From: a virus
Taxonomy: Duplodnaviria > Caudoviricetes
Direction: 5' to 3' (one strand)
Virus record (IMG/VR): IMGVR_UViG_2832928787_000001
Coordinates: 24,759 to 88,758 of that record
DNA: 64,000 bases
Part shown: positions 12,277 to 58,931 of the stretch, in pieces
How the letters are laid out: each line of letters starts with the position of its first letter
Numbering within the stretch: position 1 is the first letter of the stretch
The notes under the pieces: model-generated
What the model saw: the letters and a program-made list of their open reading frames with translations, nothing else
Database searches by the model: none
What the model was told of the DNA's origin: nothing
Program-made: the position numbers and the translations under genes

Positions 12277-12309
12277 TTGACATAGGCATAGCCAATTTAT
12301 CACGACAAA
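12277..12309. promoter_or_regulatory. Conserved 33-bp promoter-like motif bordering cassette locus 1
   Basis: TTGACATAGGCATAGCCAATTTATCACGACAAA; 27/33 identical to 58899-58931. Confidence 0.6.
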
Positions 12310-12327
12310 CACCAATCGACTACCCCC

Positions 12328-12353
12328 CGCCCAGCCCTGTGCTGGGCTTTTTT
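12328..12353 (+). terminator. Intrinsic terminator
   Basis: GCCCAGC-CCTGT-GCTGGGC then TTTTTT. Confidence 0.7.
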
Positions 12354-12374
12354 CGCCTCCAAGGAGCACTGAAC

Positions 12375-12743
12375 ATGCGCATCGCAACTGAACAACTGGC
12401 CGACATCCGTGGCGGCCTGATGGTCGAGGAACTGACCGAGTCCCTGGCTGAAGTCGTCAACGCCGTCATCACCACCGGCAAGAAGGGCGCCGTGCAACTG
12501 AAGCTGGACATCAACCCCGCCAGCAAGGGCGACGCCGTGGTGACGGTGACTGACGAGATCAAGAAGACCGTACCGCAGGAGAAGCGCACCGGCACGCTGA
12601 TGTTCGCCACGCCGTCCGGCTCGCTCCAGCGGCAGGACCCGCGTCAGACCGATCTGCCCCTGGTCTCGACATCGGCCACGATGCCGACGCTGCAGTCCAC
12701 TCCCACCGAATCCCCGTCGCTGCGCGTCGTCGGCGGCAACTGA
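12375..12743 (+). CDS. Conserved phage early protein (typical neighbour of DUF2303 genes)
   Basis: AAGGAG RBS; ELTESLAEVVNAV..TGKKG.V.LKLDI motif. Confidence 0.75.
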   Translation: MRIATEQLADIRGGLMVEELTESLAEVVNAVITTGKKGAVQLKLDINPASKGDAVVTVTDEIKKTVPQEKRTGTLMFATPSGSLQRQDPRQTDLPLVSTSATMPTLQSTPTESPSLRVVGGN

Positions 12744-12770
12744 TTTCCCCACCCAACCGAAAGCCCCCCC

Positions 12771-13616
12771 ATGAACACCGAAAAGAACATTGTCGAATCG
12801 GCCATTCAGGCCGCAAGCAAGCCGTTTCTGATGGACATCAGCGGCACCCCGGTTCTGCTGATGCCCGATTGCAATGGTGGCTGGTCGCGCCAGGAACTGG
12901 ACAAATACCGTACCGAGCCGCTGCGCAAGACTGGCGCAGTGGTCCTGCATCAGCTCGACAGCCTGCTGGCCTTCATCAAGGAGCACAAGGAATCCGGTAC
13001 CCAACTGTTCGTCGATGCCGACTATGCGCAGGGCCGTGCGTCGTTCAAGGCCGTGCTCAACGGCCATACCGGCCCCCAGCCTGACTTCGGCGACTTCACG
13101 GCGCTGTACACCCCGATGAAGACGGTCGACTGGTCGAACTGGCTGGAAAGCAACGGCAAGAAGATGGACCAGGAAGAATTCGCCCGCTTCCTGCAGGACA
13201 ACATTGCCAACATCGTCAGTCAGGATCCGGCCAATAGCAGCCGCCAGTACCCGGCCGCAGCCGACCTGCTGGAATTCGCCAGCAATCTGGAAATGACCAG
13301 CACCGTGCGCTTCCGCAGCAGCACCAAGGTGCAGAACGGCCAGGTGCAGTTTGAGTACGTCGAAGAGGGCGACAACAACACCAAAGGCCGTCTGCAGATG
13401 TTTGAGCGCTTCGGCCTCGGTCTGCAGCCGTTCGCAGGCGGTGACGCCTACTTCATCGAGGCGTTCCTGCGCTTCCGCATCGACCGCAACAGCGGTGAAC
13501 TCAAGCTGTGGTACGACCTGAACCGCCCGGACAAGGCCCTGGAAAACGCCACAGAAAAGATGATCGAGCGCATCAAGGTCGAATCGGGCGTGCCGGTCTA
13601 TTTCGGCAAGGCGTGA
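12771..13616 (+). CDS. DUF2303/YfdQ family protein
   Basis: W..SNGKKMDQEEFARFLQDN, FRSSTKVQNGQVQF, AFLRFRI motifs. Confidence 0.85.
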   Translation: MNTEKNIVESAIQAASKPFLMDISGTPVLLMPDCNGGWSRQELDKYRTEPLRKTGAVVLHQLDSLLAFIKEHKESGTQLFVDADYAQGRASFKAVLNGHTGPQPDFGDFTALYTPMKTVDWSNWLESNGKKMDQEEFARFLQDNIANIVSQDPANSSRQYPAAADLLEFASNLEMTSTVRFRSSTKVQNGQVQFEYVEEGDNNTKGRLQMFERFGLGLQPFAGGDAYFIEAFLRFRIDRNSGELKLWYDLNRPDKALENATEKMIERIKVESGVPVYFGKA

Positions 13617-13956
13617 CAGTGTCCCCGCTGAAACTCACCTTCCTGTCCACCTGCGCCGGATTCGGCTTCGCCACTGGCGCAATCGCGGCGGTGGGCTGGG
13701 TCAAGGTTGCAGCCGATCTTTTCTCATAACCCCAGCCCGGCCCCGGCCGGGCCTACCGGATAGCCGCCCCACAGCTGCTACCCCGTGGGCCATGCCCCAA
13801 CCACCAGGAGACCCATCATGACCATGGAAGTGGTCGACATGACCGACGACGCCATCAACGAGCTGCGCGCCAGCGGCTGGATCATCAAGGCCCCGTTCTT
13901 CCGCGACGGGCAGGCCGTATTTCTGGTTATCAAACTGCCGGCTTAGCCGCGTCTCC

Positions 13957-14047
13957 CATGCTCATGAGCAGCACCAAAGCACGACATGAGCAGGTCATGA
14001 GCGGCACATGAGCGGCACATGAGCATGAAATGAGCACCCCATGAGCA
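13957..14047 (+). repeat. CATGAGC iteron cluster (centromere/operator-like)
   Basis: About 7 copies of (C)ATGAGC-like words directly upstream of and overlapping the start of the StbA-like gene. Confidence 0.7.
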
Positions 14048-14409
14048 ACCCTGACACCTGGCAACAGCAGGTCGCCGGGCAGTTGCGCCAGCTCGCGGCG
14101 GAACAGGCTGGCCCGAGCAAGGCTGCCCGGTTCCGGGCGCTGTTCCCTGACATCGAGGACGCCATGCGCCGTGGCTGTAGCCAGCGCGAGCTGATCGCCA
14201 CCCTGGCCGGCAGCGGACTGACGATGACCCTGGACGAGCTGCGCAACGCCCTGTACCGCGAACGCAAACGACGGAAAGCGAGGCCGCCCGATGCGGCAAC
14301 ACATCCCCCGCCGCGACTGGCGCCACCGCCGGCCACCCCGGCTGCACCGGGTGCACCACCCGGCAGCTTTGACTGGCAACGCCACCGCGACAAGAAACCC
14401 AACTGGTAA
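14041..14409 (+). CDS. StbA/TraK-like DNA-binding protein
   Basis: SKAARFRALFPDIEDAMRRGCSQRELIATL...LTMTLDELRNALYRERK resembles the StbA N-terminal domain. Confidence 0.65.
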   Translation: MSNPDTWQQQVAGQLRQLAAEQAGPSKAARFRALFPDIEDAMRRGCSQRELIATLAGSGLTMTLDELRNALYRERKRRKARPPDAATHPPPRLAPPPATPAAPGAPPGSFDWQRHRDKKPNW

Positions 14410-14428
14410 CCCCGAGGACCACCCCACC

Positions 14429-15175
14429 ATGAACAAAACCGTCCACATGGTCATGAACGGCAAAGGCGGCTGCGGCAAGAGCCTGATCGCCAGCCTGCTG
14501 GCGCAGATCCTGGCCGCACAAACGCCGGACCTGCTGTGCGTCGACGTCGACCCGACCAACCGCACCCTGAGCCGCTTTGCCGCGCTGAACGTGCACGGGC
14601 TCGAACTGCTGGATGCCACCCGCCAGATCAACCCGCGCCAGTTCGACACCCTGGTCGAATGGCTGCTCGACCACTCCGGCGATGCCGTCATCGACAACGG
14701 CGCCAGCGGCTTCGTGCCTCTGCTGGCCTATCTGTCCCGCTCCGGTGTGCTTGAGCTGCTGCGCGAACATGGCGTCGACGTGCTGCTGCATGTGCCGATC
14801 ATCGGTGGCGAGTCGCTGGACGACACCGCCAACGGCTTTACCGCCCTGATGGAAGAGACCGACGCCGATGCCGTGGTGTGGCTGAACCCGTTCTTTGGCC
14901 CGGTCGAGCGCGCCGGCAAGCGCTTCGTCGACAGCCCGATCTATACCGACGTCGCCCACCGAGTGCGCTGTGTGGTCAACCTGCAGGACTGGGACCGGGC
15001 CACCTACGGCCAGGACCTGGCCGACATGCGTGCCGCCGGGCTGACCTTTGCCGAGGCGCTGGCGCCGAACAGCACGCTGGGCGCTATGCCCCGCCATCGC
15101 CTGCACAAGGTATGGAACGACATCGCCGGCCAGTTGGCCGGCATCCGGCTGAATCATCAGGGAGCAGCAGCATGA
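14429..15175 (+). CDS. traL: TraL/StbB-like P-loop ATPase
   Basis: HMVMNGKGGCGKS, DVDPTN, IDNGASGFVPL, VVWLNPFFG and TYGQD match IncP TraL motifs. Confidence 0.8.
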   Translation: MNKTVHMVMNGKGGCGKSLIASLLAQILAAQTPDLLCVDVDPTNRTLSRFAALNVHGLELLDATRQINPRQFDTLVEWLLDHSGDAVIDNGASGFVPLLAYLSRSGVLELLREHGVDVLLHVPIIGGESLDDTANGFTALMEETDADAVVWLNPFFGPVERAGKRFVDSPIYTDVAHRVRCVVNLQDWDRATYGQDLADMRAAGLTFAEALAPNSTLGAMPRHRLHKVWNDIAGQLAGIRLNHQGAAA

Positions 15176-15465
15176 GCCATCTCGAAATCCACAGCAGCCA
15201 CGAACTGCCCGCAGCCGAATGCAAGATCGTCGCCGACATCGGCCTGGCGCTGATTGCGATGCATGAAGCCGGCGTGGACAAACCGGGCGAGCTGCCACGG
15301 CCTGCCGACGTCGCCCGGCAATTGATCGGCGCGCTGGCCGCCTGCAAGCCTGACAGCAAGATCGACGACATCTACAAGGACCTGATCATCGCCATCACGG
15401 CGTTGATGCTGGGGGATGGCGGCATCATCCAGACGCCGGCCCCGCCCACGCAGTCCATGCACTGA
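15172..15465 (+). CDS. Hypothetical protein
   Basis: ATGA-coupled to traL; followed by a hairpin plus T run at 15467-15489. Confidence 0.6.
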   Translation: MSHLEIHSSHELPAAECKIVADIGLALIAMHEAGVDKPGELPRPADVARQLIGALAACKPDSKIDDIYKDLIIAITALMLGDGGIIQTPAPPTQSMH

Positions 15466-15705
15466 CGCCGCCGACAGCGGCTTTTTTTTACGCGGATGCA
15501 TAATGCACATTCCACCGATTACCCCGCGACTGAGCGTGCCACGTCGCCCAGCCTGCCGCCGGCTTATGCCCCACAGCCCGTCGCCAGCGGCAGAACTGGC
15601 AAAGGACATGACCACCTGGGCGCTGCGCGGCTTCGCCGGCGCCAGCGGCGTGTTCACCTTCCTGTTCCTGCTCGACTTCCTCTATTCCCTTATTGGACAT
15701 TGACC

Positions 15706-16365
15706 ATGAGTGCCCTGATTTTTGACACCGAAACCACCGGCCTGCGCGAACCGCAGGTCATCGAGGCCGCCTGGCTGCGCATCACCAGCCTGACACCGCT
15801 GGCCACTGGCGACGCCTACGAGCAGCGCTTCCGCCCGAACAAACCGATCGACTTCGGTGCCATGGCCACCCACCACATCACCGACGAGGATCTGGCCAAC
15901 TGCCAGCCGTCGAACAGCTTCCGCCTGCCGGACGGCGTGCAGTACCTGATCGGCCACAACATCGACTACGACTGGGGCGTTATCGGCCAGCCGGACGTAC
16001 GCCGCATCGACACCCTGGTACTGAGCCGTCTGCTGTGGCCCGAGGCCGACTCGCACAAACAGACCGCGCTGCTGTACATGCTCGACCGGCCGTTCGCCCG
16101 ACAGCACGCCCCTGCAGCGCACAGCGCCGCCGCTGACGTGTTCATGCTGGCGCATCTGCTAACCCACATCCTGGACCGCCTCGGCAATCCGACGACGCTC
16201 GACGAGCTGTGGCGCCACTCCGAAGCCGCCCGCCTGCCGCGCACCATGACCTTCGGCAAGCACAAGGGCGAGCTGCTCGGCGATGTGCCGGTCGACTACC
16301 GGCGCTGGCTGCTGGGTCAGCCCGATCTGGACCCGTATCTGCGCCGGGCGCTGGAAGCGCTGTAG
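15706..16365 (+). CDS. DEDDh 3'-5' exonuclease (ExoX-like)
   Basis: IFDTETTG, IGHNIDYD, AHSAAADV, MTFGKHKG. Confidence 0.9.
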   Translation: MSALIFDTETTGLREPQVIEAAWLRITSLTPLATGDAYEQRFRPNKPIDFGAMATHHITDEDLANCQPSNSFRLPDGVQYLIGHNIDYDWGVIGQPDVRRIDTLVLSRLLWPEADSHKQTALLYMLDRPFARQHAPAAHSAAADVFMLAHLLTHILDRLGNPTTLDELWRHSEAARLPRTMTFGKHKGELLGDVPVDYRRWLLGQPDLDPYLRRALEAL

Positions 16366-16426
16366 GCCGCAAACCATTGACATGACAAACCGCCCGGCTG
16401 GGCGGTTTCGCCTTTCTGGAGTCACC

Positions 16427-16690
16427 ATGCCCACCATGTTCTATCGCGTCGGCCAGCGCGCCGAGTGCCATTCATTCACCCCGCTGGTCGACGATGCCGC
16501 CACCGACCTGGCCGAGCAAGCTGCCGCCGACTACTGGCAGCGTACCAGCATCGCCAACAGCCGCAGGCCACTGCACATTTCCCTGTTCGACGAGCGCGGT
16601 CAGCTCTACGGCACATTCAGCGTCGCCGTCGAGCAACCGCCGATCTACCGCGCCACGCCGACCACGGCCATGCAGCGAGCTGCTGCATGA
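16427..16690 (+). CDS. Hypothetical phage protein
   Basis: GGAG RBS, coupled to the downstream ORF. Confidence 0.55.
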   Translation: MPTMFYRVGQRAECHSFTPLVDDAATDLAEQAAADYWQRTSIANSRRPLHISLFDERGQLYGTFSVAVEQPPIYRATPTTAMQRAAA

Positions 16691-16856
16691 TCCTGACCGC
16701 TGACCAGGTCCGCCCCGGACCGCACTGGGTGCGGTTGAGCCCTGCGTCAGGGTGGGTGCTGATGGTCATAGAAAACCCATCAGCATTGCTGTACGGGCTG
16801 GCTGGCGCCGATTTCTGCCCAATCGCGATGCCTACTGACGCCAATGGAGATTTGCA

Positions 16857-17198
16857 ATGACTGATCCTGCAGACCTTGCCGGCTGCCAGTTCGGCCGGCT
16901 GACTGTATCCGGTCCGTCAGATGTCAGGATATTCCGCGGGCGCACCGTTCTCTGCCGGTGTCGCTGCGGCGGTTCTATCTGCGTCCGTCCCGGTGACCTG
17001 CGCAAAGGAAAGGTGAAGTCCTGCGGCTGCTACCGGCGCGAGCTGGCGCTTGCAGCGCTTCAGCGGGCGAACCAGCCCGAGGCCAGGTCAAGGCAACTGG
17101 TCTCGGCCAACAGGACGCGGCATCGAAAACAGATTTTGGCGCTGGGGTCCGTTACCACCACCCGCCAATACATCGACGGTCAACCTGCCCCGCTATGA
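16857..17198 (+). CDS. HNH/AP2-associated cysteine-rich DNA-binding protein
   Basis: DLAGCQFGRLTV...CRCRCG...KSCGC motif. Confidence 0.7.
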   Translation: MTDPADLAGCQFGRLTVSGPSDVRIFRGRTVLCRCRCGGSICVRPGDLRKGKVKSCGCYRRELALAALQRANQPEARSRQLVSANRTRHRKQILALGSVTTTRQYIDGQPAPL

Positions 17199-17317
17199 GC
17201 GGGGCGATTCATTTCCACACGATGCGGACAAAAGCAGCCAGCATGACGGCACGTTCGACGTCGCTCAGGAACCGATCGACTGAGCCACGCTGGTGACTGT
17301 TATCGACCAATTTCGGA

Positions 17318-17380
17318 CATTAACATAGAAGGTAAGCGGACTGCCGCTTGCTGCAGATTCGCTTGACTAAAAGGTTCGGT
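17318..17380 (-). other. attC: Integron attC site
   Basis: ACCGAAC-cttttagtcaagcgaatctgcagcaagcggcagtccgcttaccttctat-GTTAATG. Confidence 0.8.
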
Positions 17381-17424
17381 CTCTCGCTCCGAATGGCTGT
17401 TCAATAGAATATAAAAAATTGCCT

Positions 17425-17499
17425 GCCATTTAGACGGAAAAGCGCCGAATGGAACCAAAAAATATAGCTTTGGAGCGTCTGTTTGACGGATTTTTAGCC
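17425..17499 (-). other. Degenerate attC remnant
   Basis: GGCTAAA-aatccgtcaaacagacgctccaaagctatattttttggttcc resembles the first half of attC 57685-57772; R' not found. Confidence 0.55.
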
Positions 17500-17503
17500 A
17501 CTT

Positions 17504-17902
17504 TCATTTGATTCTCCGCTGCTTCAGCAGCTTGTCAATTTCATTGATGGCGTTTTTTTCTTCTATCTGAAAGGAGTTGGGCTCAATAGTCGCCTTCAAT
17601 GATTGAAATCCGAGAAAAATAGAGGCGACACCCAAGATAAAAGATGTAAGGTCGGCTTGGCCATTGAAGGCCGCCCAACCTGCTGCAGCGCAAAACAAGA
17701 CCAGGCTGAGACCGTAAATTGGTTTTAACTGTTTAACTTTCCGAGACTGCTCGAGGCGAATGTTTTCTTGCCTGAAAGGCCGTTCTTGCAATAATTCTTC
17801 ACTTGAACAGTGAACTAACAGCCTGTGCTGGTTTTGCGAATTATCGTTGACATTAAAATCGCCCTGGATATTTATTTGTCCATCATTGTTGAAATCGCGC
17901 AA
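17504..17902 (-). CDS. Cassette-like gene: two-TM-helix protein
   Basis: GAGGAGG RBS with TTG start, lower GC, two hydrophobic helices, GTTAGCA core at 17943-17949. Confidence 0.7.
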   Translation of the reverse strand: MRDFNNDGQINIQGDFNVNDNSQNQHRLLVHCSSEELLQERPFRQENIRLEQSRKVKQLKPIYGLSLVLFCAAAGWAAFNGQADLTSFILGVASIFLGFQSLKATIEPNSFQIEEKNAINEIDKLLKQRRIK

Positions 17903-18133
17903 TCGTGGCCTCCTCAGTCACGGATAAAGTGAATTTGCTTCATGCTAACGGCTATCGACCAGTTAGGCCATATCCCCTTACATCACCTCGTGGTTATGTG
18001 TGCAAAGAGTATTTGCGGCGAACGTTCAGCGTTTCCGACCTCCGCCTATTCGACGGTACCGTTGATCCAAACCTGTCGTTTTTTTGGTGGGTGTTCGAGC
18101 ATGTACTCAACAGCAACCATCAAATACCCACAG

Positions 18134-18166
18134 TTGACATTAGCATAACCACTCTACCACAACAAA
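18134..18166. promoter_or_regulatory. Conserved 33-bp promoter-like motif bordering cassette locus 2
   Basis: Minus strand reads TTGTTG-N17-TAATGT with an extended TGn; 31/33 identical to 58899-58931. Confidence 0.6.
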
Positions 18167-18288
18167 TTCCCAGCTTTCCACCCCGAACCCGCCCCCGATG
18201 GCGGGTTCGTCGTTTTCGACACCCCGCTGACACCCGGCACGCTCCCGGCGTGAGGTTGGGTACCGGCTGAACATATGGAGGTCATTGC

Positions 18289-19854
18289 ATGGACCGCGAT
18301 CAATTCCTGCTCGACATCAGCCATGAGCTGTTAATCGACAATTTCGCCGGCGGTGGCGGGGCCAGCACCGGCATCGAGCAGGCAACAGGCAGGTCCGTCG
18401 ACATTGCCATTAACCACGATCCCGAGACGGTGGCGATGCACGCCGCCAATCACCCGCAGACGCACCATTATTGCGAGGACGTGTATCACGTCGACCCGCG
18501 TACAGCGACGCAGGGGCGCCCGGTCGGATTGGTCTGGCTGTCTCCGGACTGCAAGCATCACTCGAAAGCAAAGGGCGGCAAGCCGCGCGAGAAGAAAATT
18601 CGTGGCCTTGCCTGGGTGGGCGTGAAATGGGCTGGCCAAACCCGTGCCCGGGTACTGATGTTGGAGAACGTCGAGGAATTCCAGGACTGGGGGCCGCTGG
18701 TTGCAAAGCGCGATGTCGCCACTGGCCGTGTGCTGACCATCGACGGTCGCGTGGCCGCCGTCGGCGAGCGCATTCCGGTCGAGCAACAGCACCTGGTGCC
18801 GGACCCGCGCCGGCGCGGGCAACACTTCCGGCAGTTTGTTGCCGCCCTGCGCCAGCTTGGCTACGCGGTTGAGTGGCGTGAATTGCGCGCATGTGACTAC
18901 GGCGCCCCGACCACACGCAAACGCCTGTTCCTGATTGCGCGGTGCGATAGCCGCCCCATCGTCTGGCCTGCGCCGACACATGGAGATCCGAAGGCGATCG
19001 GATTCAAGCGTCGCCAGCTCAAGCCATGGCGCACTGCTGGCGAGTGCATTGACTGGTCGATCCACTGCCCGAGCATTTTCGAGCGCGACCGGCCGCTGGC
19101 CGATGCCACGCTGCGCCGGATCGCCCGTGGCATCGTGCGCTACGTCCTGCAGACCGGCGAGCCGTACATCGTGAAGTCCTCGCAGAACAGCACCGGGCAT
19201 GGCCTTGGTGAGCCACTGCACACGGCAATGGCCGGGGCGACACGGTTCGGACTGGTCGAGCCATTCCTGACCGAGCATGCACTTGCCTGCGCCATGCTGA
19301 TCAAGCACTACGGTGGCAACTACACCGGGCACGGGTCTGATCTGGCAGAACCGATCCACACGATAACTGCCTCGGATCACCACTCGCTGGTGACGTCGCA
19401 TCTGCTCAAGCTGCGACACCACAGTGACGGCCAGCCTGCCACCGAGCCGATCGACGTTATCGCCGCTGGCGGGCAGCACTTCGGCGAGGTGCGGGCATTC
19501 CTGGTCAAGTACTACGGCAACGAGCGTGACGGCGTCAGTCTGTTCTCGCCGATGCACACCCTGCCGACGCGCGACCGCATGGGGCTGGTCACCGTCCAGA
19601 TTAACGGCGAGCCCTACGCGATCGCCGACATCGGCATGCGCATGCTGGAACCGCACGAGCTGTATGCCGCCCAGGGATTTCCGCGCTGGTACCGGCATGC
19701 ACTGACCATCGACGGACGACGTCTGCCGAAATACGCCCAGGTCCGCATGTGCGGTAACAGTGTCAGCCCGGTCATGCCGAAAGCGCTGGTCAGAGCCAAC
19801 CTGCCCGAACTGACCATGATCGGGCGGAAACAACGAGAGGAGCTTGCAGCATGA
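18289..19854 (+). CDS. DNA cytosine (C5) methyltransferase
   Basis: FAGGGG, SPDC, ENV, RKRLF and CGNSV motifs. Confidence 0.93.
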   Translation: MDRDQFLLDISHELLIDNFAGGGGASTGIEQATGRSVDIAINHDPETVAMHAANHPQTHHYCEDVYHVDPRTATQGRPVGLVWLSPDCKHHSKAKGGKPREKKIRGLAWVGVKWAGQTRARVLMLENVEEFQDWGPLVAKRDVATGRVLTIDGRVAAVGERIPVEQQHLVPDPRRRGQHFRQFVAALRQLGYAVEWRELRACDYGAPTTRKRLFLIARCDSRPIVWPAPTHGDPKAIGFKRRQLKPWRTAGECIDWSIHCPSIFERDRPLADATLRRIARGIVRYVLQTGEPYIVKSSQNSTGHGLGEPLHTAMAGATRFGLVEPFLTEHALACAMLIKHYGGNYTGHGSDLAEPIHTITASDHHSLVTSHLLKLRHHSDGQPATEPIDVIAAGGQHFGEVRAFLVKYYGNERDGVSLFSPMHTLPTRDRMGLVTVQINGEPYAIADIGMRMLEPHELYAAQGFPRWYRHALTIDGRRLPKYAQVRMCGNSVSPVMPKALVRANLPELTMIGRKQREELAA

Positions 19855-19890
19855 GCCATCGAGCGATGGCTGCAGCAACCAATTCCGGGA

Positions 19891-21829: not shown

Positions 21830-22081
21830 ATGACAACCGACGAAATCGTGCCATTTGACGAGCTGGCAACAGTTTCCGGCTACAAACGACCGCGCTGCAT
21901 AAGAGACTGGCTGGACGCCAACAGAATCCGCTACCTGCAGAACGCCAGCGGCAGACCAATTGTTGCCCGGTCCACGTTTATGCAAGCACTGGGTGTCAAA
22001 CCAATCACCATTGACCCCACGCCGTTACGCGGAATCAATACCGCCAACCTTGACCATCTCCACGCGCAGAAAAGAAAATGA
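21830..22081 (+). CDS. Excisionase-like protein (DUF4224-like)
   Basis: ELATVSGYKRP...WL..NRI.Y....GRPIVAR; overlaps the integrase start. Confidence 0.75.
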   Translation: MTTDEIVPFDELATVSGYKRPRCIRDWLDANRIRYLQNASGRPIVARSTFMQALGVKPITIDPTPLRGINTANLDHLHAQKRK

Positions 22082-23166
22082 CTCGCCCCAGAAAGAAAAA
22101 TCGCGATCTCCCACCGCGCATGTACCTGAAGCATGGCGCCTATTACTACGTCACCCCAGCAAAGAAATGGATACGTCTATCCAGCAATCTAGAGGAGGCC
22201 AAGAGAAAGTGGGTCGAACTGGAAGCGCCATGCATGATGCCGTCGCAAGGCATGCTGGCGTTATTAAATCGCTATTCTGTCGAGGTGCTGGCAAATAAAT
22301 CCCCCAAGACCAGACAATTGCAGGAACCGCAAATGAAGCCACTTGAAGCTGCGTTTGGCGATATGCGACCGGATGAAGTTAGACCGGTACACATTGCCCA
22401 ATATCTCGATTACAGAGCAAGCAAAGACGCCCCGGTCGCGGGAAACCGGGAAAAGCAGTTACTGTCTCACGTTTTCACCATGGCAATGCGCTGAGGTATC
22501 GTAGACACCAATCCGTGCAAAGGCGTAACCCGGAACAAGGAAGTGCCGCGCACCCGATATGTCTCCGACCAGGAACTGGGCGACTTTATACAGTTCGCAA
22601 GAGACCTGAAAGTGGGGATGCTGAAAATCCGGGTCGATGATGACGGGAATGTACTGATGCCACAGCGAACGGCGAAGCGCTATACACGGCCACTTGCAAG
22701 TGGGCAGGTGGTTTCCAGCGTGCTGGACATTGCCTATCACACTGCCCAGCGCCGCCAGGATGTCCTGGCGCTTACTCTCGATGACATCACTGATGCAGGC
22801 ATACTGTTCCGGCAGCGGAAAACGCAGGATACCGCGCCGGTCAAAGTCCTGGTCAGCTGGAAGCCGGGCTTGCGCGAGGCCGTCAGGGTCGCCATGACCC
22901 TACCCCGCCGAGCCGGGTTCCTGTTCGAGACCCGCGGGCATCCCTATACCGACGACGGGTTCAGTTCCCTGTTCCAGCGAATCATGCGCACCTGGGGTTT
23001 ACTGGGCCATGAGCGGTTCACGGTTCACGATCTGCGCGCCAAGGGCGCAACCGACCTACTCGATCAGGGGGCTCAGGCAATAGACACTACGGGGCACGCC
23101 TCGGACAGCATCCTGAGGAGGGTCTATGACCGGCGCAGAACGCGCCGAGGGACGGCTGTGAAGTGA
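22078..23166 (+). pseudogene. int: Tyrosine integrase with an in-frame nonsense codon at 22492-22494
   Basis: Both ORF halves are in the same frame: AMR*GIVDTNPCKGV; catalytic TAQRRQD, HDLRAK, GH, VYDR present. Confidence 0.9.
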
Positions 23167-23250: not shown

Positions 23251-23297
<47 letters not shown>

Positions 23298-24633: not shown

Positions 24634-24882
24634 TTATGGTGTGACGGCTTGTTGCAGCCCTGCCCGCTCCACGACACAGACCACATACTGTCGCACCAGA
24701 ACCAGATAGCGCTCGACCAGATCATCCGGGTTATCGCTGGTCGGGCGCTCAATCTGTGACGCCGGCGTCACCAGATTGGCCGGCAGCGATGGTCGCATTG
24801 GCATCGTCGACGGCGGACTGGATGCGGCGCAGGCGCTCAGCATCAAAACGGCAATCGGCAGGCAAGGGATTCTGCATCGCAT
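24634..24882 (-). CDS. Outer-membrane spanin (Rz1-like)
   Basis: Lipobox LSAC, Pro-rich, overlaps the i-spanin gene. Confidence 0.7.
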   Translation of the reverse strand: MRCRIPCLPIAVLMLSACAASSPPSTMPMRPSLPANLVTPASQIERPTSDNPDDLVERYLVLVRQYVVCVVERAGLQQAVTP

Positions 24883-51654: not shown

Positions 51655-51657
51655 GCC

Positions 51658-52137
51658 CTACTCCTCCACCGCGTCACAGAACGCTGTCAGCTCGGGCAAT
51701 AGCGGGCGCAGCAGGTTGGCAATCTCCCGGTGCTCGCGGCGGTCCACGCGGCCATCAGCCACGGCCTCGGATTTGGCCCGGATCACATCGGCCAGCTCAC
51801 CGATCTGGCGCAGACAGAACGCTGCGCGATCGGCCTCGGTCATGCCCTGCTCGCTGAAATCGACTCGGTCACTGCCGTAGCCGGACAGGACGTTCTGCGC
51901 ATAGCCGGCGCGCAGGGTCTCCAGCATGTCGAGAATGTCTTTTGCCGTCGGCGAATGCCCGAGGTCATCAGGGTTAAATCGACCGGATAGCACCACATGC
52001 GCATTCACCCCAGTCCGCCCCATTTCGCTGGCCAGCGCGGGGTAACCGCCAGGGTGACGTCTGACGTCTTTGCGAAACGCGACGAACAGCGCCCGGTGAA
52101 CGACTTTGACGTGCTGCTCAGATTTCGGTTTTTCCAT
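51658..52137 (-). CDS. CII-like regulatory protein
   Basis: HPGGYPALA...ADGRVDRRE. Confidence 0.7.
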   Translation of the reverse strand: MEKPKSEQHVKVVHRALFVAFRKDVRRHPGGYPALASEMGRTGVNAHVVLSGRFNPDDLGHSPTAKDILDMLETLRAGYAQNVLSGYGSDRVDFSEQGMTEADRAAFCLRQIGELADVIRAKSEAVADGRVDRREHREIANLLRPLLPELTAFCDAVEE

Positions 52138-52173
52138 GATTTTGCTAAACCTTTGTCATAGCGCCGGGGGCGG

Positions 52174-52392
52174 TTACGATGCAGTGATGCTCTTCTCTGC
52201 GGCTTCGTAGGCAGCAAGCAGGCGCGCGAGCGGCAGTTTTGTTGCCTCGGAAACGCGTCGGCAGCGCTTGGGTGGGACGAACCCTTTCGCAACCCACTGC
52301 TGCACTGCCTGCGGGCTTACCCCGATTTTTTTTGCCAGATCAGACTGGCTGCCGCCGGCTCGGTCGACGGCCTCTTGTGCGATGTTGGTCAT
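52174..52392 (-). CDS. cro: Cro-like repressor
   Basis: GSQSDLAKKIGVSPQAVQQW. Confidence 0.88.
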   Translation of the reverse strand: MTNIAQEAVDRAGGSQSDLAKKIGVSPQAVQQWVAKGFVPPKRCRRVSEATKLPLARLLAAYEAAEKSITAS

Positions 52393-52417
52393 CTGACCCT
52401 CCTATTGGGAGCAGATT

Positions 52418-52477
52418 ACAAGATCGTCTTTCAATAAACAAGTATTTCTTGCAGTGAGGATGACAAGCTGCGCTTGT
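52418..52477. promoter_or_regulatory. Three operators ACAAG-N5-CTTGY between cro and cI
   Basis: Copies at 52418 (degenerate), 52438 and 52463. Confidence 0.8.
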
Positions 52478-52488
52478 AGAATTGCTCT

Positions 52489-53157
52489 ATGGATACCATC
52501 GGCTCACGCATTCGACAGGCCCGGGAAAAACTTGGCCTCTCGCAAACGGACATTGCTCACACCCTGAAAATCACCCCTCAGGCCGTTCAGCAATGGGAGG
52601 ACGGCAAGACCGCCCCGAGAGGCGCGCGCCTGGACGCTCTTGCAACGTACCTTGGCACGTCAAAGGCGTGGCTGTCGTTTGGCGACGAGAAGTCAATGCC
52701 GCCGGCAGCCAACTTCAGAGTGATTGACGACAATGATGACCTCGATCCCCTGTGCTACGTGAAGATCGAGCGGTTCAATGTGAAGCTGTCAGCAGGAAAC
52801 GGGACCGTTGAATGGATCCCGGAGAAGCTGGACCCACTAGTGTTTCGCCGGGCATGGTTCAGCAAGAAGGGCTTCCCCATCGAGCACTGCAAGGCGATGT
52901 ATGTCCGTGGAGACAGCATGATGCCGATGCTGATGGACTGGGACACAATCCTCATCGACACCAGCGACACGGAGCTGGTCGAGGGCGAGGTGTTCGCGGT
53001 TGCGTTCAAGGGGAAGCTGTACGTGAAGCAGATCGCCCATTACGAGGACGGGATCAAGCTGGTCAGCCTGAACGAGCGATACGACCCAGTCGTCGTCCCT
53101 GATGCCGAGGCAGAGCGGTTCAAGTGCCTGGGGCGCATGGTCTGGCGCGGAGGCTAG
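52489..53157 (+). CDS. cI: CI repressor (HTH + S24 peptidase)
   Basis: LSQTDIAHTLKITPQAVQQWE; GDSM and VK motifs. Confidence 0.93.
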   Translation: MDTIGSRIRQAREKLGLSQTDIAHTLKITPQAVQQWEDGKTAPRGARLDALATYLGTSKAWLSFGDEKSMPPAANFRVIDDNDDLDPLCYVKIERFNVKLSAGNGTVEWIPEKLDPLVFRRAWFSKKGFPIEHCKAMYVRGDSMMPMLMDWDTILIDTSDTELVEGEVFAVAFKGKLYVKQIAHYEDGIKLVSLNERYDPVVVPDAEAERFKCLGRMVWRGG

Positions 53158-53351
53158 CGGCCTGGCTTACGCTACCTAAGCCCCACCCTCCGTGGGGCTT
53201 TTTCACGCCCGCCGTTCTGGTCACCCCTTCCCCACCCATCAACAGCCCGCTATGCGCGGGCTTTGTTGCGTCTAGACCAACGCCGTTGCACTTCATTGCC
53301 TTCGGCTATCAGTTACGTCGTTTTAATTTAAAGTATTTCTTTAAATGAATA

Positions 53352-53392
53352 ACAAGTTTAACTTGCTTAAATACAAGAAACACTTGTATATT
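53352..53392 (+). promoter_or_regulatory. Early (pL-like) promoter with operators
   Basis: TTGCTT-N18-TATATT; ACAAG-N5-CTTG at 53352 and 53373. Confidence 0.7.
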
Positions 53393-53400
53393 TACCTCAC

Positions 53401-53663
53401 ACCACGGCAACACACCGTGGACCCACACCGACGTGGAAGTGAAGGCTCCGGGGGGCAGGCAAGGCCCGGCGGCAGGAAGCGAAAGAATGCGTCGGTTCAG
53501 CGGATGAAGCGTGGAGAGCGCGGACGCGGGGTGCCAGTCAAGGGCGGATGAGTAGCCGCCGCCCTCGCAAAGCCGCCACAGGGTGCGGTGCTGGTTGTGC
53601 TGATCTTTCGGAGCGGCTTCACCCGAGGCCGATCACCAAAGCCCCGTGACAGGCGGTTTTGGT
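53401..53663 (+). ncRNA. Candidate structured early leader RNA
   Basis: Series of hairpins sharing its 5' end, loop words and terminal double hairpin with the prophage 1 leader/repeat. Confidence 0.45.
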
Positions 53664-53696
53664 GAATGAACACCGGCATGGCCGGGAGGGGGAATT

Positions 53697-53993
53697 GTGA
53701 AGACCTACAAGCGCGGGCGCACATCGTCCGAGTTCATTGCCGCAGCACAGGCTGCCGGGATGGAGATCGAAACCACAAACTACAACCTCGGCGGCGACTG
53801 GATCACGGCGCACGGCACGCTGGAGAGTGTGAAGATCCGCATGCTGTTCAATGTCTGCACCGCGGCAGTCATCGGGAATTACGGCGGGGACGGCCGACCA
53901 TTCGCCACAGAAGACGGCTCGCATGATGGCGAGCCGTGGTTTGACGCGGTGCTTGATCTGGCAATGACCAACGAGCCGCCACAGAGGACGTGA
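53697..53993 (+). CDS. Hypothetical early protein
   Basis: GGAGG RBS, GTG start. Confidence 0.6.
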   Translation: MKTYKRGRTSSEFIAAAQAAGMEIETTNYNLGGDWITAHGTLESVKIRMLFNVCTAAVIGNYGGDGRPFATEDGSHDGEPWFDAVLDLAMTNEPPQRT

Positions 53994-54085
53994 GTCGGAA
54001 CGGCCTGTCGTTCCACATGTTCAACGTCAGCCCGGCAAATCTGCAGACACTGCACGCCGGGCTGCTTGATCAAGGAAGCAAGGAC

Positions 54086-54289
54086 TCAGCCCTTCGTAGC
54101 CCCTGACAGGAACCCGGCAAAAAGGCGCTCGCTCAAGGCCTTGGTGATTTCGTGGATCTCTTCAGGATGAAGGACATGCCCGCAGCCAACGCAGGCGTAG
54201 CTGTCCGGCCCTTCGCTTGTCTCGGCGTACTTGAGCTTATCGCCAGTGCATTCAGGGCAAGTGATGGGGGTGTTGATAGGAGTAGTCAT
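54086..54289 (-). CDS. Small zinc-ribbon protein
   Basis: CPEC...CVGC. Confidence 0.55.
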   Translation of the reverse strand: MTTPINTPITCPECTGDKLKYAETSEGPDSYACVGCGHVLHPEEIHEITKALSERLFAGFLSGATKG

Positions 54290-54400
54290 GAGCATTTCTC
54301 CCAATGATTAGTTAGATGGCATTGCTCATTTTATGCATCATGACGAAAATTTCTATCCGAATTTTCTGCCGCTGGTAAATTTTTTTCTCAAAGGATAGGC

Positions 54401-54637
54401 ATGTCAGAACAACGATTCCCGATCCCATTCGCGACTGTTGATGATGCCGTTGCATCGGCACAGGTGGTTGAAAGCCTGGTTGCAGATATGGACAAGGGGC
54501 GGTGGGAATTTCTGGTAGAGCCGTGGACGCGGGTCCGAGCCGGTGCCCACGTCGTCATCCCCTACTCAGCCTGGATGAAGATCGAGGCCGAGCTGAGACG
54601 CGGGCACAAAAACGGAAAGGCCCCGACTGCTGAGTAG
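54401..54637 (+). CDS. Hypothetical protein
   Basis: AAGGA RBS. Confidence 0.55.
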   Translation: MSEQRFPIPFATVDDAVASAQVVESLVADMDKGRWEFLVEPWTRVRAGAHVVIPYSAWMKIEAELRRGHKNGKAPTAE

Positions 54638-55605
54638 CAGCTGAGGCCTTCCCGGTCCCTACGGATGAGCTTTGCTTTCAACGCAGGGGCAATTTCAATA
54701 TAGCAGCACCGCTTTGTGGTGCAAGGTAAAGCAGTGCTGCTGAAAACGGGAAGGCCCCCGGGCATGCGTACCAGGGGCCTTCAGCCACTCCGGACCATCC
54801 GGCAGGGCTACGATGAATGTAGGAAACACTTAGTAACAATTCAAGAAATTGCCCGGCCCTGCGCCGGGCTTTCTCATTTAGGAGACCAACATGGTCATGA
54901 CCGAACTGGACGACGCCACGGTGCTGCGGCTCCGTGCTCAGGGCTATCGCGCGAAATGCATCATCCGGCGCGGCATGACCCTGTTTTTCATCTACCGCTG
55001 GAGGATGTGATGGGACCGATCCGCCGCCGCATTTTCACCCGCGACCCGGCCGACACACCGCTGGCCTTTGCCTGCGATGTTGCTCTCACCACGCTGGGCG
55101 CCCTGTTCTACGCCGCTGCTGCTGCCACTCTGGCCGCCATCTGCTACGACGCCGTGCCGCTGGACCTGCTGTGGAGGCTGCTGCCATGAGAATGATCGAG
55201 GCCCCTCTGGGTGTCGCCTGGCACTCGAACGACCCACGGTTGGGCACCGACCCGTGCCGGCAGGACGAGGCCGACGATCTGACCACGGCTGCCGACATGG
55301 CAGTGGCCGACATTGAGGCCGCTGCCGCCCTGGTGCGCTGCGGGCGGTTTGCCGAGGCCCGGCAAGCGCTGATCGACTCGGCGCACGGCCTGATGAGCAG
55401 CCTGCAATGAGGGCACCTCTCACACAGCGCCAACTGCAGGACTACATCCACCGGGCGCGGGAACGACGGGCGTCAGATGCCGGCGGGCCAGCACGCGGGA
55501 ACGAATACGACCGACGCCGGGCTGATGCTCGGCGTTTTCGCGAGGACACGGAAGAGCTGGTTTTGGCCGTGTTCGGGCCGAAACATCACTGAACAGAGGA
55601 ACACC

Positions 55606-56562
55606 ATGACCACGATGGACCGCGCCGAATGGCTGGCGCTTCGCAACACCGGCATTGGCGGCTCTGACGCCGGCACCGTACTCGGCGTCAACCCCTACAA
55701 GCAACCGCTGCAGCTCTACCACGAGAAGCGGGGCGAACTGGAGCCTGATGATCTGAGCGACAACGAAGCGGTGCATTTTGGCAATGCGCTGGAGGACGTC
55801 GTCGCGGCTGAGTTTTCGCAGCGCACCGGCCTCAAGGTCCAGCGGCACAACGACATGCTCCGCCACCCTGAGCATTCGTTCATGATCGCCAATCTGGACC
55901 GGCTGGTGTGGGATGGCGACAAGAAGCCGGCGCACAGAGGCGAGATCAGAACCAAGGCCCTGCTGGAATGCAAAACCGCGCTCGGCCGCTTTACCGACAA
56001 ATCGGCGTGGGGCCCGGATGGAACCGACGAGGTGCCGGAGTCATATTTCATGCAGTGCCAGCACTACATGGCCGTGGCTACCGCTGACCTCTGCTATCTG
56101 GCCGTCCTCATGGCTGGTCCGGAGTTCCGGATCTACACGATCACACGCGACGAGGAAATCATCGAAGTGATGATCGAGCGTGAGCGCGAATTCTGGAACG
56201 CCATCCAGGGCGGCACGCCACCAGGTCTGGATTACGAACACCGGACGACGCCCGACCTGCTCTCCCGCCTATATCCGGGCTCCGACGGTACAGCTATCGA
56301 CCTACCGGAATCCGCCGCGCACTGGCATGCGGTCCTGCAGGAGGCCAAAGGGCTGGAAGCCGAGTATGGCAAGCAAGCCGAGATCGCAAAAAACCACCTG
56401 CGGCGCCTGGCCGGGGCCAGCGCAATCGCTCGCCTGCCGGACGGTACGGCCTACACACGCAAGATCGTGAAGCGGAAGGGATACGAGGTCGGTGACGCCG
56501 AGTATGTGGACTTCCGGTTTACCAAGAAACCGAAGGGCGGTGATGACACCGCTGAGCAATAA
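55606..56562 (+). CDS. YqaJ-family phage exonuclease
   Basis: WLALRNTGIGGSD, ANLDR, LECKT, QCQHYM. Confidence 0.92.
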   Translation: MTTMDRAEWLALRNTGIGGSDAGTVLGVNPYKQPLQLYHEKRGELEPDDLSDNEAVHFGNALEDVVAAEFSQRTGLKVQRHNDMLRHPEHSFMIANLDRLVWDGDKKPAHRGEIRTKALLECKTALGRFTDKSAWGPDGTDEVPESYFMQCQHYMAVATADLCYLAVLMAGPEFRIYTITRDEEIIEVMIEREREFWNAIQGGTPPGLDYEHRTTPDLLSRLYPGSDGTAIDLPESAAHWHAVLQEAKGLEAEYGKQAEIAKNHLRRLAGASAIARLPDGTAYTRKIVKRKGYEVGDAEYVDFRFTKKPKGGDDTAEQ

Positions 56563-56572
56563 GGGGAACACC

Positions 56573-57550
56573 ATGAACGAAATCGCCCTCGGCGGTGGCA
56601 GCTTTGACCTGTCGCCCAAGAGCCTGGAAGAAGCGATGAAGCTCGCCGAGCTGCTGTCCGACTCGACCATTGTTCCGAAGGACTATCAGGGCCGACCCGG
56701 CAATGTTCTGGTCGCCGTGCAGTGGGGCATGGAAATCGGCCTCAAGCCGATGCAGGCCATGCAGAACATCGCCGTCATCAACGGCCGGCCGAGTCTGTGG
56801 GGCGACGCCATGTTGGCGCTGGTACGCAGCTCCCCCCTGTGCGAGTACGTCTACGAGTCAGACGATGGGGAAACGGCGACCTGCCGAGTGAAGCGTGTCG
56901 GCGAGGATGAGCAGGTCCGGACGTTCGGCATGGAAGATGCCAAAACGGCAGGATTGACTGGCAAGGCGGGCCCATGGTCCCAGTACCCGAAGCGCATGCG
57001 CCAAATGCGCGCACGCGGGTTTGCTCTGCGCGACGTGTTCCCGGATGTGCTCAAGGGCATGGCATCCGCCGAAGAAGTACGGGACACCGCAGCGGAAAAG
57101 GATGTAACGCCGGATGGCACCACCAGTGAGCCGCAGCGCACCAGCAGCCGAGCCGATGCACTGCGGAAGAAGCTGGGCACCGGCTCGACACAGAAGGCGT
57201 TGCCGAGCCAGCAATTCACGGCGGCAATGGATGCCATCGCCCTGGCCGCATGCGGTGCAGACATGCAGCGCGCCAAGCTGCTGGCCTCGCAAATCACCGA
57301 CGAGAAAGAGGTCGCGCTGGCGCTCAGCGCCTATCAGTCCAGGGTGACCGAACTGCGCGCTCGCGCATCAACGGTCGATGGCGAGACCGGGCAGGTCGTC
57401 GAATCGCTTGACAACCTGGTAGCCGAGGCTGCCCGCGCCGCATCTGCTGACGATCTGGACCTGATTGCCGACCGTGGCCGGTCACTGCCTGACGATGAGG
57501 CGTCCGTGCTGGCCGATGCCATTGCTGAACGCCGCAGTGAAATGGAGTGA
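56573..57550 (+). CDS. RecT-like single-strand annealing protein
   Basis: GLKPMQAMQNIAVINGRPSLWGD, PWSQYPKRM; adjacent to the YqaJ gene. Confidence 0.8.
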   Translation: MNEIALGGGSFDLSPKSLEEAMKLAELLSDSTIVPKDYQGRPGNVLVAVQWGMEIGLKPMQAMQNIAVINGRPSLWGDAMLALVRSSPLCEYVYESDDGETATCRVKRVGEDEQVRTFGMEDAKTAGLTGKAGPWSQYPKRMRQMRARGFALRDVFPDVLKGMASAEEVRDTAAEKDVTPDGTTSEPQRTSSRADALRKKLGTGSTQKALPSQQFTAAMDAIALAACGADMQRAKLLASQITDEKEVALALSAYQSRVTELRARASTVDGETGQVVESLDNLVAEAARAASADDLDLIADRGRSLPDDEASVLADAIAERRSEME

Positions 57551-57552
57551 TC

Positions 57553-57690
57553 ATGCCCGCCCCCATAGACCTGACTGGCCAGCAATTCGGCCGACTGACC
57601 GCCCTCCGCCGCGATGGCCACGACACCAGCGGCAAAACGCTGTGGCTGTTCTCCTGCTCATGCGGCGGATTGGTGCGCATCGCAGCCTAA
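57553..57690 (+). pseudogene. Truncated HNH/AP2-associated gene, cut at the attC core
   Basis: MPAPIDLTGQQFGRLT...WLFSCSCGG..RIAA*; the stop lies inside GCCTAAC; homolog 16857-17198 is longer. Confidence 0.7.
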
Positions 57691-57772
57691 CGTTTTAGGT
57701 AAGTGGAACCGAAGCGCAGTGAAGGGGACCAAAAGTATAGCTTTTGGCGTCCGATTGACTGAATTGTTATAC
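57685..57772 (-). other. attC: Integron attC site
   Basis: GTATAAC-aattcagtcaatcggacgccaaaagctatacttttgg...ttccacttacctaaaac-GTTAGGC; overlaps the stop of 57767-58648. Confidence 0.85.
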
Positions 57773-58648
57773 CCATGGCAGACCGGTTAGTTTGGCTGAT
57801 GTTCCAAGTCCTTGCTGGATTCTTGTAAGTACCCGCCTATCGAGTGTTACTCCTGAACCTTTTTGCATTCCATCAAGATAGTTTGCTGCTGCATCAACTA
57901 GCCATTTTGTAAAATCTTCGGCTTCTTTTTTCAAAAACATTTTAACGGAAGTTCCAAAACAATCCTTGTCAGGATCTACAATTTTACCAGCCTCTGCTTG
58001 TAGGCCAAGCATCTTGAATTTTGCCTGATCGCTACGAGTTATTAATCCATAATTGTGCGACAAGGTATGCCTGATTTGAAAAACAGCCTGAAGCTTAATG
58101 TTTTTGCTAGCTAACGGTGATTTTAGATTTGATTTGTTGTATCTTTTGTCTTGAACTATAGATTGAGTCGCAGCGTCGATGCTGTCTAAATCATGATATA
58201 ACTGGTGTTCGAAAATCAGTTCGGAAATTGATATTTTTCCCGATACCGACCAAAGAACTTTAGAATCTACAGCACCCTTTATCCTTTCTGGCGGAACATA
58301 GTTTCTAAGGGCTTTGGCTAGATTTATAGCCGATTGTTTGTAAAAAACTTCAAACGCATTGATCGCCTCCAGTAAAGAATTTTGCTCGGCGTACCACTTG
58401 TATTTTCTGTATGTTAAATCCTTTGGTGATCTCTCACCTGCGGCCCTTTTTAATTTAATTAGCGTGCTGTGCCGGCTTTCAATCCACTGAATATAATTTA
58501 TTTGATTATTAAGGACTTCTTTAAATTTCTCCAGTGCCGTAGCTGATGTGGCCTTTGCAAGGTGTTTTATTTCTGCATTGTCAGCAGACTCAACCTTGTT
58601 GCGTTTTTCGAATAATTTAATGTTCTTTGAGCCAGTGGTTCGTGTCAT
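57767..58648 (-). CDS. Integron cassette gene: HEPN-domain protein
   Basis: AT-rich; upstream FE motif and IRHTLSHNYG (RxxxxH); cassette starts GCTATACCC, pairing with R'' GGGTATAAC. Confidence 0.8.
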   Translation of the reverse strand: MTRTTGSKNIKLFEKRNKVESADNAEIKHLAKATSATALEKFKEVLNNQINYIQWIESRHSTLIKLKRAAGERSPKDLTYRKYKWYAEQNSLLEAINAFEVFYKQSAINLAKALRNYVPPERIKGAVDSKVLWSVSGKISISELIFEHQLYHDLDSIDAATQSIVQDKRYNKSNLKSPLASKNIKLQAVFQIRHTLSHNYGLITRSDQAKFKMLGLQAEAGKIVDPDKDCFGTSVKMFLKKEAEDFTKWLVDAAANYLDGMQKGSGVTLDRRVLTRIQQGLGTSAKLTGLPWV

Positions 58649-58898
58649 GAAAGCACCGAGAGGGTATAGCGTAAAGTCGGCACCAATTGGTGCCTGAAAA
58701 TTTTAAAATGTCATTTGTCGTTAAATGCACAGTGACAAGACACTTAAAACGGACAAACCCTGTATTCACAAGGTAGGCCGATAATTTCATGCATCGTATA
58801 AAACCCAGAAAAACGACATGCTGAACCAAACATTACACCAATCAGGTCGTGTGTGAAATGGCTGCTTACTGCCGACAGCAGCCATCACACACCCATAA

Positions 58899-58931
58899 TT
58901 GACATTTGCATAACCACTCTATCACAACAAA
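58899..58931. promoter_or_regulatory. Conserved 33-bp promoter-like motif bordering cassette locus 3
   Basis: TTGACATTTGCATAACCACTCTATCACAACAAA. Confidence 0.6.

Follow-up and report, generated by a model that had tools for sequence, protein, structure and literature searches.

Two large reservoirs of accessory and anti-phage genes, integrons and prophage hotspots, are usually treated apart. In phage morons and prophage defence hotspots, cargo that varies and is often lower in GC lies between a terminator and the promoter that follows. Defence systems in integron cassettes have been listed in preprints. Integron cassettes lying away from an integrase gene are described as clustered attC sites that lack an integron integrase (CALIN) or single attC sites that lack one (SALIN), and according to Loot et al. 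cassettes are inserted at secondary attG sites with the consensus GWT, are expressed from resident nearby promoters, and may later lose their attC by slippage (bioRxiv 10.1101/2022.09.11.507474). Such elements occur in phages as well, as Qi et al. (2023) report 17 CALINs in 10,705 phage genomes, along with integrons (PMC9892861). The DNA considered here (the window) comprises 64,000 nucleotides, the last 64 kb (positions 24,759 to 88,758) of the 88,758-b provirus record IMGVR_UViG_2832928787_000001 from IMG/VR (Duplodnaviria; Caudoviricetes); coordinates are those of the window, and whole-record scans cover all 88,758 b. It carries two temperate prophages in tandem, as seen from protein family scans, and in them three loci of antisense cassettes (A, B, and C), each beside one copy of a 33-bp motif.

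The co-location of the motif with attC sites is confirmed. We consider it fairly probable that the cassettes are the cargo of a phage accessory-gene hotspot and that the motif is the core of a rightward promoter-like leader. An earlier note on this DNA had seen in the same arrangement an integrase-less mini-integron, consisting of a Pc-like promoter, a GTT acceptor site, and cassettes, of which it knew no description. This interpretation is supported in part, for the cassettes and the lack of an integrase, but the mini-integron platform as stated is not supported; its claim to be undescribed does not hold for the arrays themselves, which are CALIN and SALIN elements, known from phages too in what the two sources above report (PMC9892861; 10.1101/2022.09.11.507474). 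The motif copies are as follows.

12277-12309, plus strand: 33-bp motif copy 1, found by pattern match, with a perfect TTGACA at its 5' end
18134-18166, plus strand: 33-bp motif copy 2, found by pattern match
58899-58931, plus strand: 33-bp motif copy 3, found by pattern match

The motif, searched as the pattern TTGACATNNGCATANCCANTNTANCACNACAAA, matched at these three positions with 0 mismatches and all on the plus strand, with 0 matches in 100 shuffled sequences, and the whole record holds the same three forward copies, 0 reverse copies, and 0 for the backwards control. The positions given by the earlier note are thereby borne out, and its identities to the last copy (27/33 and 31/33) are correct by direct reading. 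The note was also right that copy 1 precedes a different phage gene, which belongs to phrog_204, as against the C5 DNA methyltransferase genes that follow copies 2 and 3. Beyond the record, IMG/VR adds two motif copies in other phage records, namely G001 (strict pattern) and L108 (looser pattern). Among species-representative genomes, a looser pattern found one match, in a metagenome-assembled genome of Chloroflexia, which was taken as chance. The motif as a general trait of this methyltransferase family was rejected, since none of the 80 relative loci kept (523 found) carries it with up to 6 mismatches.

The motif does not stand alone; it is embedded in longer modules, whose parts are listed here.

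18110-18291, plus strand: leader module of the prophage 1 methyltransferase gene, with about 24 bp of upstream flank, motif, hairpin, 5' untranslated region, and ATG
58875-59056, plus strand: the same leader module in prophage 2, 92% identical to 18110-18291
12244-12374, plus strand: copy 1 module, with a short upstream flank, motif, terminator-like hairpin, and ribosome-binding site of the phrog_204 gene; the boundary at 12244 is taken from a contig joint
12329-12347, plus strand: terminator-like hairpin of copy 1, followed by TTTTTT
18184-18209, plus strand: terminator-like hairpin of the copy 2 leader
58951-58972, plus strand: terminator-like hairpin of the copy 3 leader

Copies 2 and 3 belong to one homologous stretch of 182 bp, 92% identical, which begins 24 bp before the motif and takes in the start codon. 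The earlier note had counted on the motif occurring in two different prophages; the cargo does differ at the equivalent slot, but these two copies are not independent. Across the four long leader copies the mean column identity is 86%, from about -25 down to the ATG. Copy 1 shares with copies 2 and 3 just the 33-bp core and a short upstream flank, the likeness of the flank being judged by eye. In L108, the same leader precedes a short open reading frame (ORF) that is not a methyltransferase (4806 onward). The motif is thus best regarded as the core of a rightward leader module, which precedes different genes in otherwise unrelated phages. A 92%-identical non-coding leader against 49%-identical methyltransferases amounts to a sharply bounded patch of either conservation or recent exchange.

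Each of the three window copies is followed, 18-20 nucleotides on, by a plus-strand GC hairpin with a T-run, as the earlier note had it, and a terminator-like hairpin stands about 20 nucleotides after the motif on the plus strand in all five copies (three in the window, G001, and L108). The T-runs at copies 2 and 3 are interrupted. In G001, a hairpin of the same shape and different stem sequence precedes the phrog_204 gene without a motif there, and for this reason the copy 1 hairpin is assigned to the phrog_204 gene. The leader hardly varies, so that covariation is not visible in it (of 37 predicted pairs, 0 have changes on both sides). A coding leader was ruled out by an 11-bp deletion in the G001 leader. 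A known RNA family was likewise rejected, as Rfam gave 0 matches at the gathering score in the window and the stretch 58850-59070 drew only sub-threshold matches.

The DNA to the left of these modules is variable. Homology breaks in contigs from 4 public DNA runs were taken as slot boundaries; DNA between the joints may exist, so that they are boundaries and not proven empty sites.

10151-12243, no strand: variable slot A, bounded by the public-run contig joint 10150 to 12244
17266-18109, no strand: variable slot B, with a left flank (17212-17310) that recurs in G001 and L108 and a right flank that runs from 18110

The breaks fall at 10150/12244 and at 17260-17265/18110, of which 12244 and 18110 mark the start of the conserved right flank, and many of the contig joints fall at 18110-18185. 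The right flank is common to all slots, and the left flank to three (slot B, G001, and L108). Each of the five motif-bearing loci has different cargo, with ORFs that run antisense to the phage operon. The search in other phage records, which the earlier note had proposed, went against a link of the motif with cassettes, as both further copies stand beside antisense cargo but without attC (best E 2.7 in G001 and 3.6 in L108 with the covariance model described below), and each of these cargoes has its own leftward promoter-like site (10/12) in the spacer. With no attC in either outside slot and the cargo self-promoted, the slot appears to be a general cargo hotspot, for which cassettes are one kind of cargo. 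The L108 slot holds an ORF of 129 amino acids (4096-4485, minus strand) with its own terminator-like hairpin and a C-terminus that looks helix-turn-helix-like by eye.

The antisense ORFs of the window belong to real cassettes of the integron type, equipped with attC sites. The sites were sought with a covariance model built from 8 plasmid attC sites only (class 1 integrons) and run with filters off over the record.

11907-11966, minus strand: attC A1, 60 nucleotides, 47.4 bits, E 2e-8, the best preserved, folding at -13.4 kcal/mol
11178-11234, minus strand: attC A2, 32.2 bits, between the two larger cassette ORFs, with a poorly preserved stem (-4.6 kcal/mol)
10324-10383, minus strand: attC A3, 38.5 bits, folding poorly (-3.1 kcal/mol)
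57685-57772, minus strand: attC C, 88 nucleotides, 28.9 bits, E 3e-4, folding at -10.9 kcal/mol
17430-17500 (approximate ends), minus strand: partial attC B1, lacking R', with the first 70 or so nucleotides alignable to attC C and to the attC of dfrA12
17319-17380, minus strand: weak attC-like site B2, 13.9 bits, E 0.72
17943-17968, minus strand: GCCTAAC-N12-GTTAGCA, a possible collapsed attC 5' of cassette B, which the model did not detect

Matches in the whole record are confined to three loci just upstream of the motif copies, all on the minus strand, and the four at E <= 3.1e-4 lie directly after ORFs and on the ORF strand. The remaining matches up to E 10 are the palindromic plus-strand reading of A1 and two at E 6.8 and 9.9. 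The attC sites of loci A and C resemble those of clinical class 1 integrons. For example, attC A3 aligns over its full length with the attC sites of the qacL and aac(6')-IIa cassettes of class 1 integrons, and attC C does so with that of the dfrA12 cassette. The 3' flank of the ORF ending at 10378 has blastn matches to 2,939 plasmid records, and in the two inspected the match is a cassette attC beside intI1 (qacL in one, aac(6')-IIa in the other); for the ORF ending at 57767, the 3' flank has matches in 1,771 plasmid records, and in the one inspected the match is the dfrA12 cassette attC beside intI1. Locus B gave no plasmid attC match. The earlier note's three attC loci thus stand for A and C, while B has a partial site and a weak one. 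Two further eroded attC sites, proposed by eye and by regular expression at 58664-58726 and 12084-12157, were rejected, being unsupported by the model, and 12082-12159 folds like shuffled sequence.

Sites A1 and C fold well (z about -2.6), and A2 and A3 no better than shuffles, the reference qacL attC folding at -17.4 kcal/mol; part of the array at locus A therefore looks eroded. As the earlier note had stated, an integron integrase is lacking: a six-frame search of the record with TIGR02249 gave at best 19.1 bits against a cut-off of 265, in the phage integrase of prophage 2. With real cassettes and no integron integrase in the record, the loci are CALIN and SALIN elements, the labels being assigned by definition and not by IntegronFinder. 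Locus A fits the definition of a CALIN (three attC sites within 1.7 kb and no intI in the record), locus C that of a SALIN, with a single well-preserved cassette and perhaps a second eroded site, and locus B is an eroded cassette locus. Contigs of a digester metagenome run match only the core of attC A1 (11922-11965), with unrelated DNA on both sides, which is the pattern expected if this type of attC sits in other environmental cassette contexts.

The cassettes carry the following genes, beside which a truncated phage gene lies at locus C.

11961-12035, minus strand: cassette A1, a 24-codon ORF ending in R'' of attC A1, with its 5' boundary GTTAGAG at 12051
11229-11873, minus strand: cassette A2 ORF, 214 amino acids, TIR-like as a lead only
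10378-11172, minus strand: cassette A3 ORF, 264 amino acids from the ATG following GTTAGATCACAC, phrog_8766, a family whose function is not known
17504-17902, minus strand: cassette B ORF, 132 amino acids, with only a weak 2TM effector match
57767-58648, minus strand: cassette C ORF, 293 amino acids, RiboL-PSP-HEPN-like as a lead
57553-57690, plus strand: truncated HNH-like gene, whose 45 codons correspond to the N-terminus of the 113-amino-acid gene at 16857-17198

PADLOC, Pfam, and PHROGs gave no confident function for any cassette ORF, and a defence role of the cargo is plausible at the level of leads from sequence and structure. Cassette A2 has TIR-type neighbours at scores of 0.80-0.83 only, and its longer frame has no Pfam, PHROG, or PADLOC match. 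The protein of cassette C is predicted to be all-helical (predicted local distance difference test score 88.1), and among its homologues R193 and H194 are invariant and H198 near-invariant (RxxxxH). Its atlas neighbours annotated as RiboL-PSP-HEPN reach a feature score of 0.92 and structural template modelling scores of 0.50-0.67; Foldseek found no match for the model in the PDB at E <= 0.001. Cassette C is mobile in other genomic contexts. Among 12 loci with homologues (1 viral, 11 metagenomic), four have an attC beside the ORF at E <= 3.2e-4, and in one of these loci (L098) the ORF is bracketed by two attC sites. The motif is near none of the 12 within 7 mismatches.

The favoured account may be put together from these observations. 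The slot sits at gene-module boundaries of the plus-strand operon, which in each prophage spans from the repressor through recombination genes and the methyltransferase to the integrase, and its antisense content varies from phage to phage. Its right flank is a conserved element of about 60 bp with the motif, continued in the methyltransferase version as a 180-bp leader with a terminator-like hairpin to the start codon. The motif may be the core of a rightward promoter or regulatory site that serves the phage genes downstream and is probably recognised by a host factor. The conserved flanks would provide the homology that lets related phages swap slot contents. The three slots in this host have gathered integron cassettes, as a three-attC array in A, a single cassette in C, and an eroded one in B. 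The source would be the integron cassette pool, from which cassettes may have been inserted at secondary sites by an integron integrase of the host or may have arrived within swapped segments.

Several results weigh against this account and are set out together here. A simple sigma-70 consensus scan lists a promoter at the motif on neither strand. Read rightward, the motif has a perfect TTGACA -35 and no -10 with A2 and T6 at 16-18 bp; the best candidate, TAnCAC after a 15-bp spacer and without the final T, is not canonical. The missing -10 lowers the case for a canonical promoter, and not that for a regulated or activator-dependent one. A terminator-like hairpin right after a promoter needs an extra assumption such as attenuation or antitermination. 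The all-against-all protein comparison found no regulator common to both prophages, and with none shared by these phages it is probably a factor of the host that reads the motif. For cassettes B and C, the spacer yielded no leftward promoter-like site belonging to the cassette itself, which leaves a leftward promoter in the motif as the sole nearby candidate for their expression. Slot A reaches 173 and 192 bp beyond the recognisable array, and the cassette junctions misfit simple integrase insertion. The contig joints do not show truly empty slots, as other DNA may lie between them. All attC loci of the record adjoin all motif copies, which is more than can be shown to be expected, and the account itself rests on two kinds of slot only.

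The rival closest to the earlier note holds that the motif is a Pc-like leftward promoter with a GTT acceptor, beside which a host integrase loads promoterless cassettes for expression in the lysogen. The distance from a motif copy is about 90-250 bp for all three attC loci, and the rest of the record has none, and the minus strand of copy 2 does read TTGTTG-N17-TAATGT with an extended TGn, as the note had it, of which the TG and the final T of the -10 are conserved in all five copies. Besides cassettes B and C with no detectable promoter of their own, cassette A3 can be called promoterless since it starts only 11 nucleotides after its GTTAGAT core. However, the two non-conserved bases of the motif are the -12 and -11 of this proposed leftward -10, with A at -11 in 3 of the 5 copies, and in the rightward promoter reading both of these bases belong to the spacer. 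The motif passes without a break into a rightward leader that is conserved down to the ATG, which, together with these variable bases, tells against a promoter and acceptor dedicated to cassettes. It occurs in the two outside phage records beside self-promoted cargo without attC, and is absent from the 12 cassette C homologue loci within 7 mismatches and from the 80 methyltransferase-relative loci kept within 6. Among the three loci, the spacer DNA that separates the motif flank from the first recognisable cassette boundary shows no relationship. The GTT cores that the note placed at all three loci can be read at 12051 and 17949, but at 58670 the minus strand has GCT. Nor do the slot boundaries seen in other samples match those of the cassettes. 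At locus C, the premature stop of the truncated HNH-like gene coincides with R' (GTTAGGC) of attC C, and the remainder of the gene is absent, also from the other side of the cassette, which speaks against a simple insertion. We therefore consider this reading quite unlikely. Its variant, in which the 60-bp flank as a whole would be a bidirectional phage-borne docking and expression site, with a leftward extended -10 driving cassettes inserted preferentially beside the flank by a host integrase, is held to be very unlikely; if true, a temperate phage family would carry an integrase-less, integron-like sampling device for defence genes.

Two other readings of the motif were weighed. Q- or AlpA-like antiterminators load at a promoter and let the polymerase pass a terminator. 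Motif and hairpin could accordingly form a promoter-proximal termination unit, in which transcription begins at the motif and halts at the hairpin unless such an antiterminator permits read-through; the downstream module would then be expressed on induction only, and the cassettes would be bystanders. The hairpin about 20 nucleotides after every copy agrees with this, as do the conserved motif bases beyond the -35, which in the four-copy leader alignment could form a protein-binding element, and the phrog_204 hairpin of G001, which keeps its shape with a different stem. On the other hand, that G001 hairpin stands without the motif, the T-runs of copies 2 and 3 are interrupted, no predicted leader pair changes on both sides, and the two prophages share no regulator; seven of the ten small or nearby left-operon ORFs scanned had no Pfam family, and none of the three matches was a regulator. 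This reading is accordingly given a small chance. The same holds for the possibility that the motif is no promoter and serves as a boundary linker or protein-binding site giving homology for module exchange, for example via phage RecE- or RecT-type recombinases, which we also find improbable. The 92% homology patches at a module boundary of otherwise unrelated phages, the many contig joints in the leader of copy 2, the same leader before different genes, and the RecE- and RecT-like proteins encoded just upstream in prophage 2 would suit it. Yet a perfect TTGACA and the conservation to ribosome-binding site and ATG resemble an expression signal, and a pure homology arm needs no set sequence, but copy 1 shares only the core and the short flank. 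Two regulators were tried as readers of the motif and rejected. For a phage repressor (CI) operator, the repressors are 29% identical, whereas all but 2 of the 33 bases agree between copies 2 and 3. For a shared CII-like regulator, the CII-like proteins have only 27% identity (E 0.006), and no shared regulator appears in the all-against-all comparison.

The hotspot account places the slots within the following gene order. On its minus strand, prophage 1 has genes for small terminase, primase, and a CII-like protein, and its CI-type repressor (6480-7499) heads a long plus-strand operon with cargo genes, locus A, motif copy 1, the phrog_204 gene, DUF2303, ParA-like, exonuclease, and HNH-like genes, then locus B, motif copy 2, the methyltransferase, and the integrase. 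The integrase is split into two ORFs, 22078-22494 (138 amino acids) and 22543-23166 (207 amino acids), both matching integrase families, so that it may be broken. Prophage 2 starts about 1.5 kb past these ORFs, which makes the prophages tandem. It opens with lysis and tail genes on the minus strand (from 24749) and reaches to a repressor of its own (52489-53157), followed by a plus-strand operon of RecE-like, RecT-like, and truncated HNH-like genes, locus C, motif copy 3, and the methyltransferase, with the integrase at the record end. In the all-against-all comparison, the prophages have the repressor (29% identity) and the methyltransferase module (49% amino acid identity) in common, and nothing else.

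Some side observations concern the same operons. The RecE-like (YqaJ) and RecT-like proteins of prophage 2 are encoded at 55477-57550, directly upstream of the slot, and enzymes of these types could drive cargo exchange via short conserved flanks. An element of about 130-170 bp occurs in three direct copies (7777-7944, 8818-8975, and 10049-10186), with 84-100% identity over 130 nucleotides, and its copies separate the plus-strand cargo genes that follow the repressor in prophage 1. Slot A has its left boundary where the third copy ends, and the contig joint 10150 falls inside this copy. Between two of the copies lies a gene (8898-10016) for a 372-amino-acid cargo protein with a WYL-like stretch, which has weak PADLOC matches to WYL models.

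What may be new here is modest, namely that three cassette loci in two tandem prophages stand in hotspots each bounded by the same conserved leader element. Literature searches, which were aimed elsewhere and did not cover supplementary tables, turned up no description of this cassette-slot flank. The arrangement suggests that temperate phages can acquire cassettes out of the integron pool and bring them from host to host, and that such cargo comes to rest at conserved boundaries between the modules of phage operons. The locus provides a defined promoter-like element, slots, and attC sites with which one can ask how promoterless cassettes come to be expressed outside integrons, and likewise whether cassettes enter through a host integrase or through phage recombination.

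Among known systems, the class 1 integron (intI1, attI1, Pc) resembles this locus in having a promoter-like element about 200 bp from the first cassette boundary, and the attC sites here closely resemble those of the qacL, aac(6')-IIa, and dfrA12 cassettes. It differs in that intI is missing from the record here, an attI is not evident, the conserved -35 faces away from the cassettes, and the motif occurs also without cassettes. Insertion at secondary attG sites has in common with this locus isolated cassettes outside integrons, with GTT at two of the three proposed 5' boundaries; however, there is no clean G|TT junction here, the gene remainder is missing at C, extra slot DNA is present, and one core is GCT. 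With phage morons and prophage hotspots the slots share cargo antisense to or independent of the operon, conserved flanks, and self-promoted cargo in G001 and L108, whereas part of the cargo here consists of promoterless attC cassettes and not of promoter-gene-terminator units. To CALIN and SALIN elements the likeness lies in attC-bounded cassettes of one orientation, with stop codons inside R'' and no intI nearby; unlike them, several attC stems here are eroded, and three loci lie in two tandem prophages with each slot flanked by the same conserved phage element.

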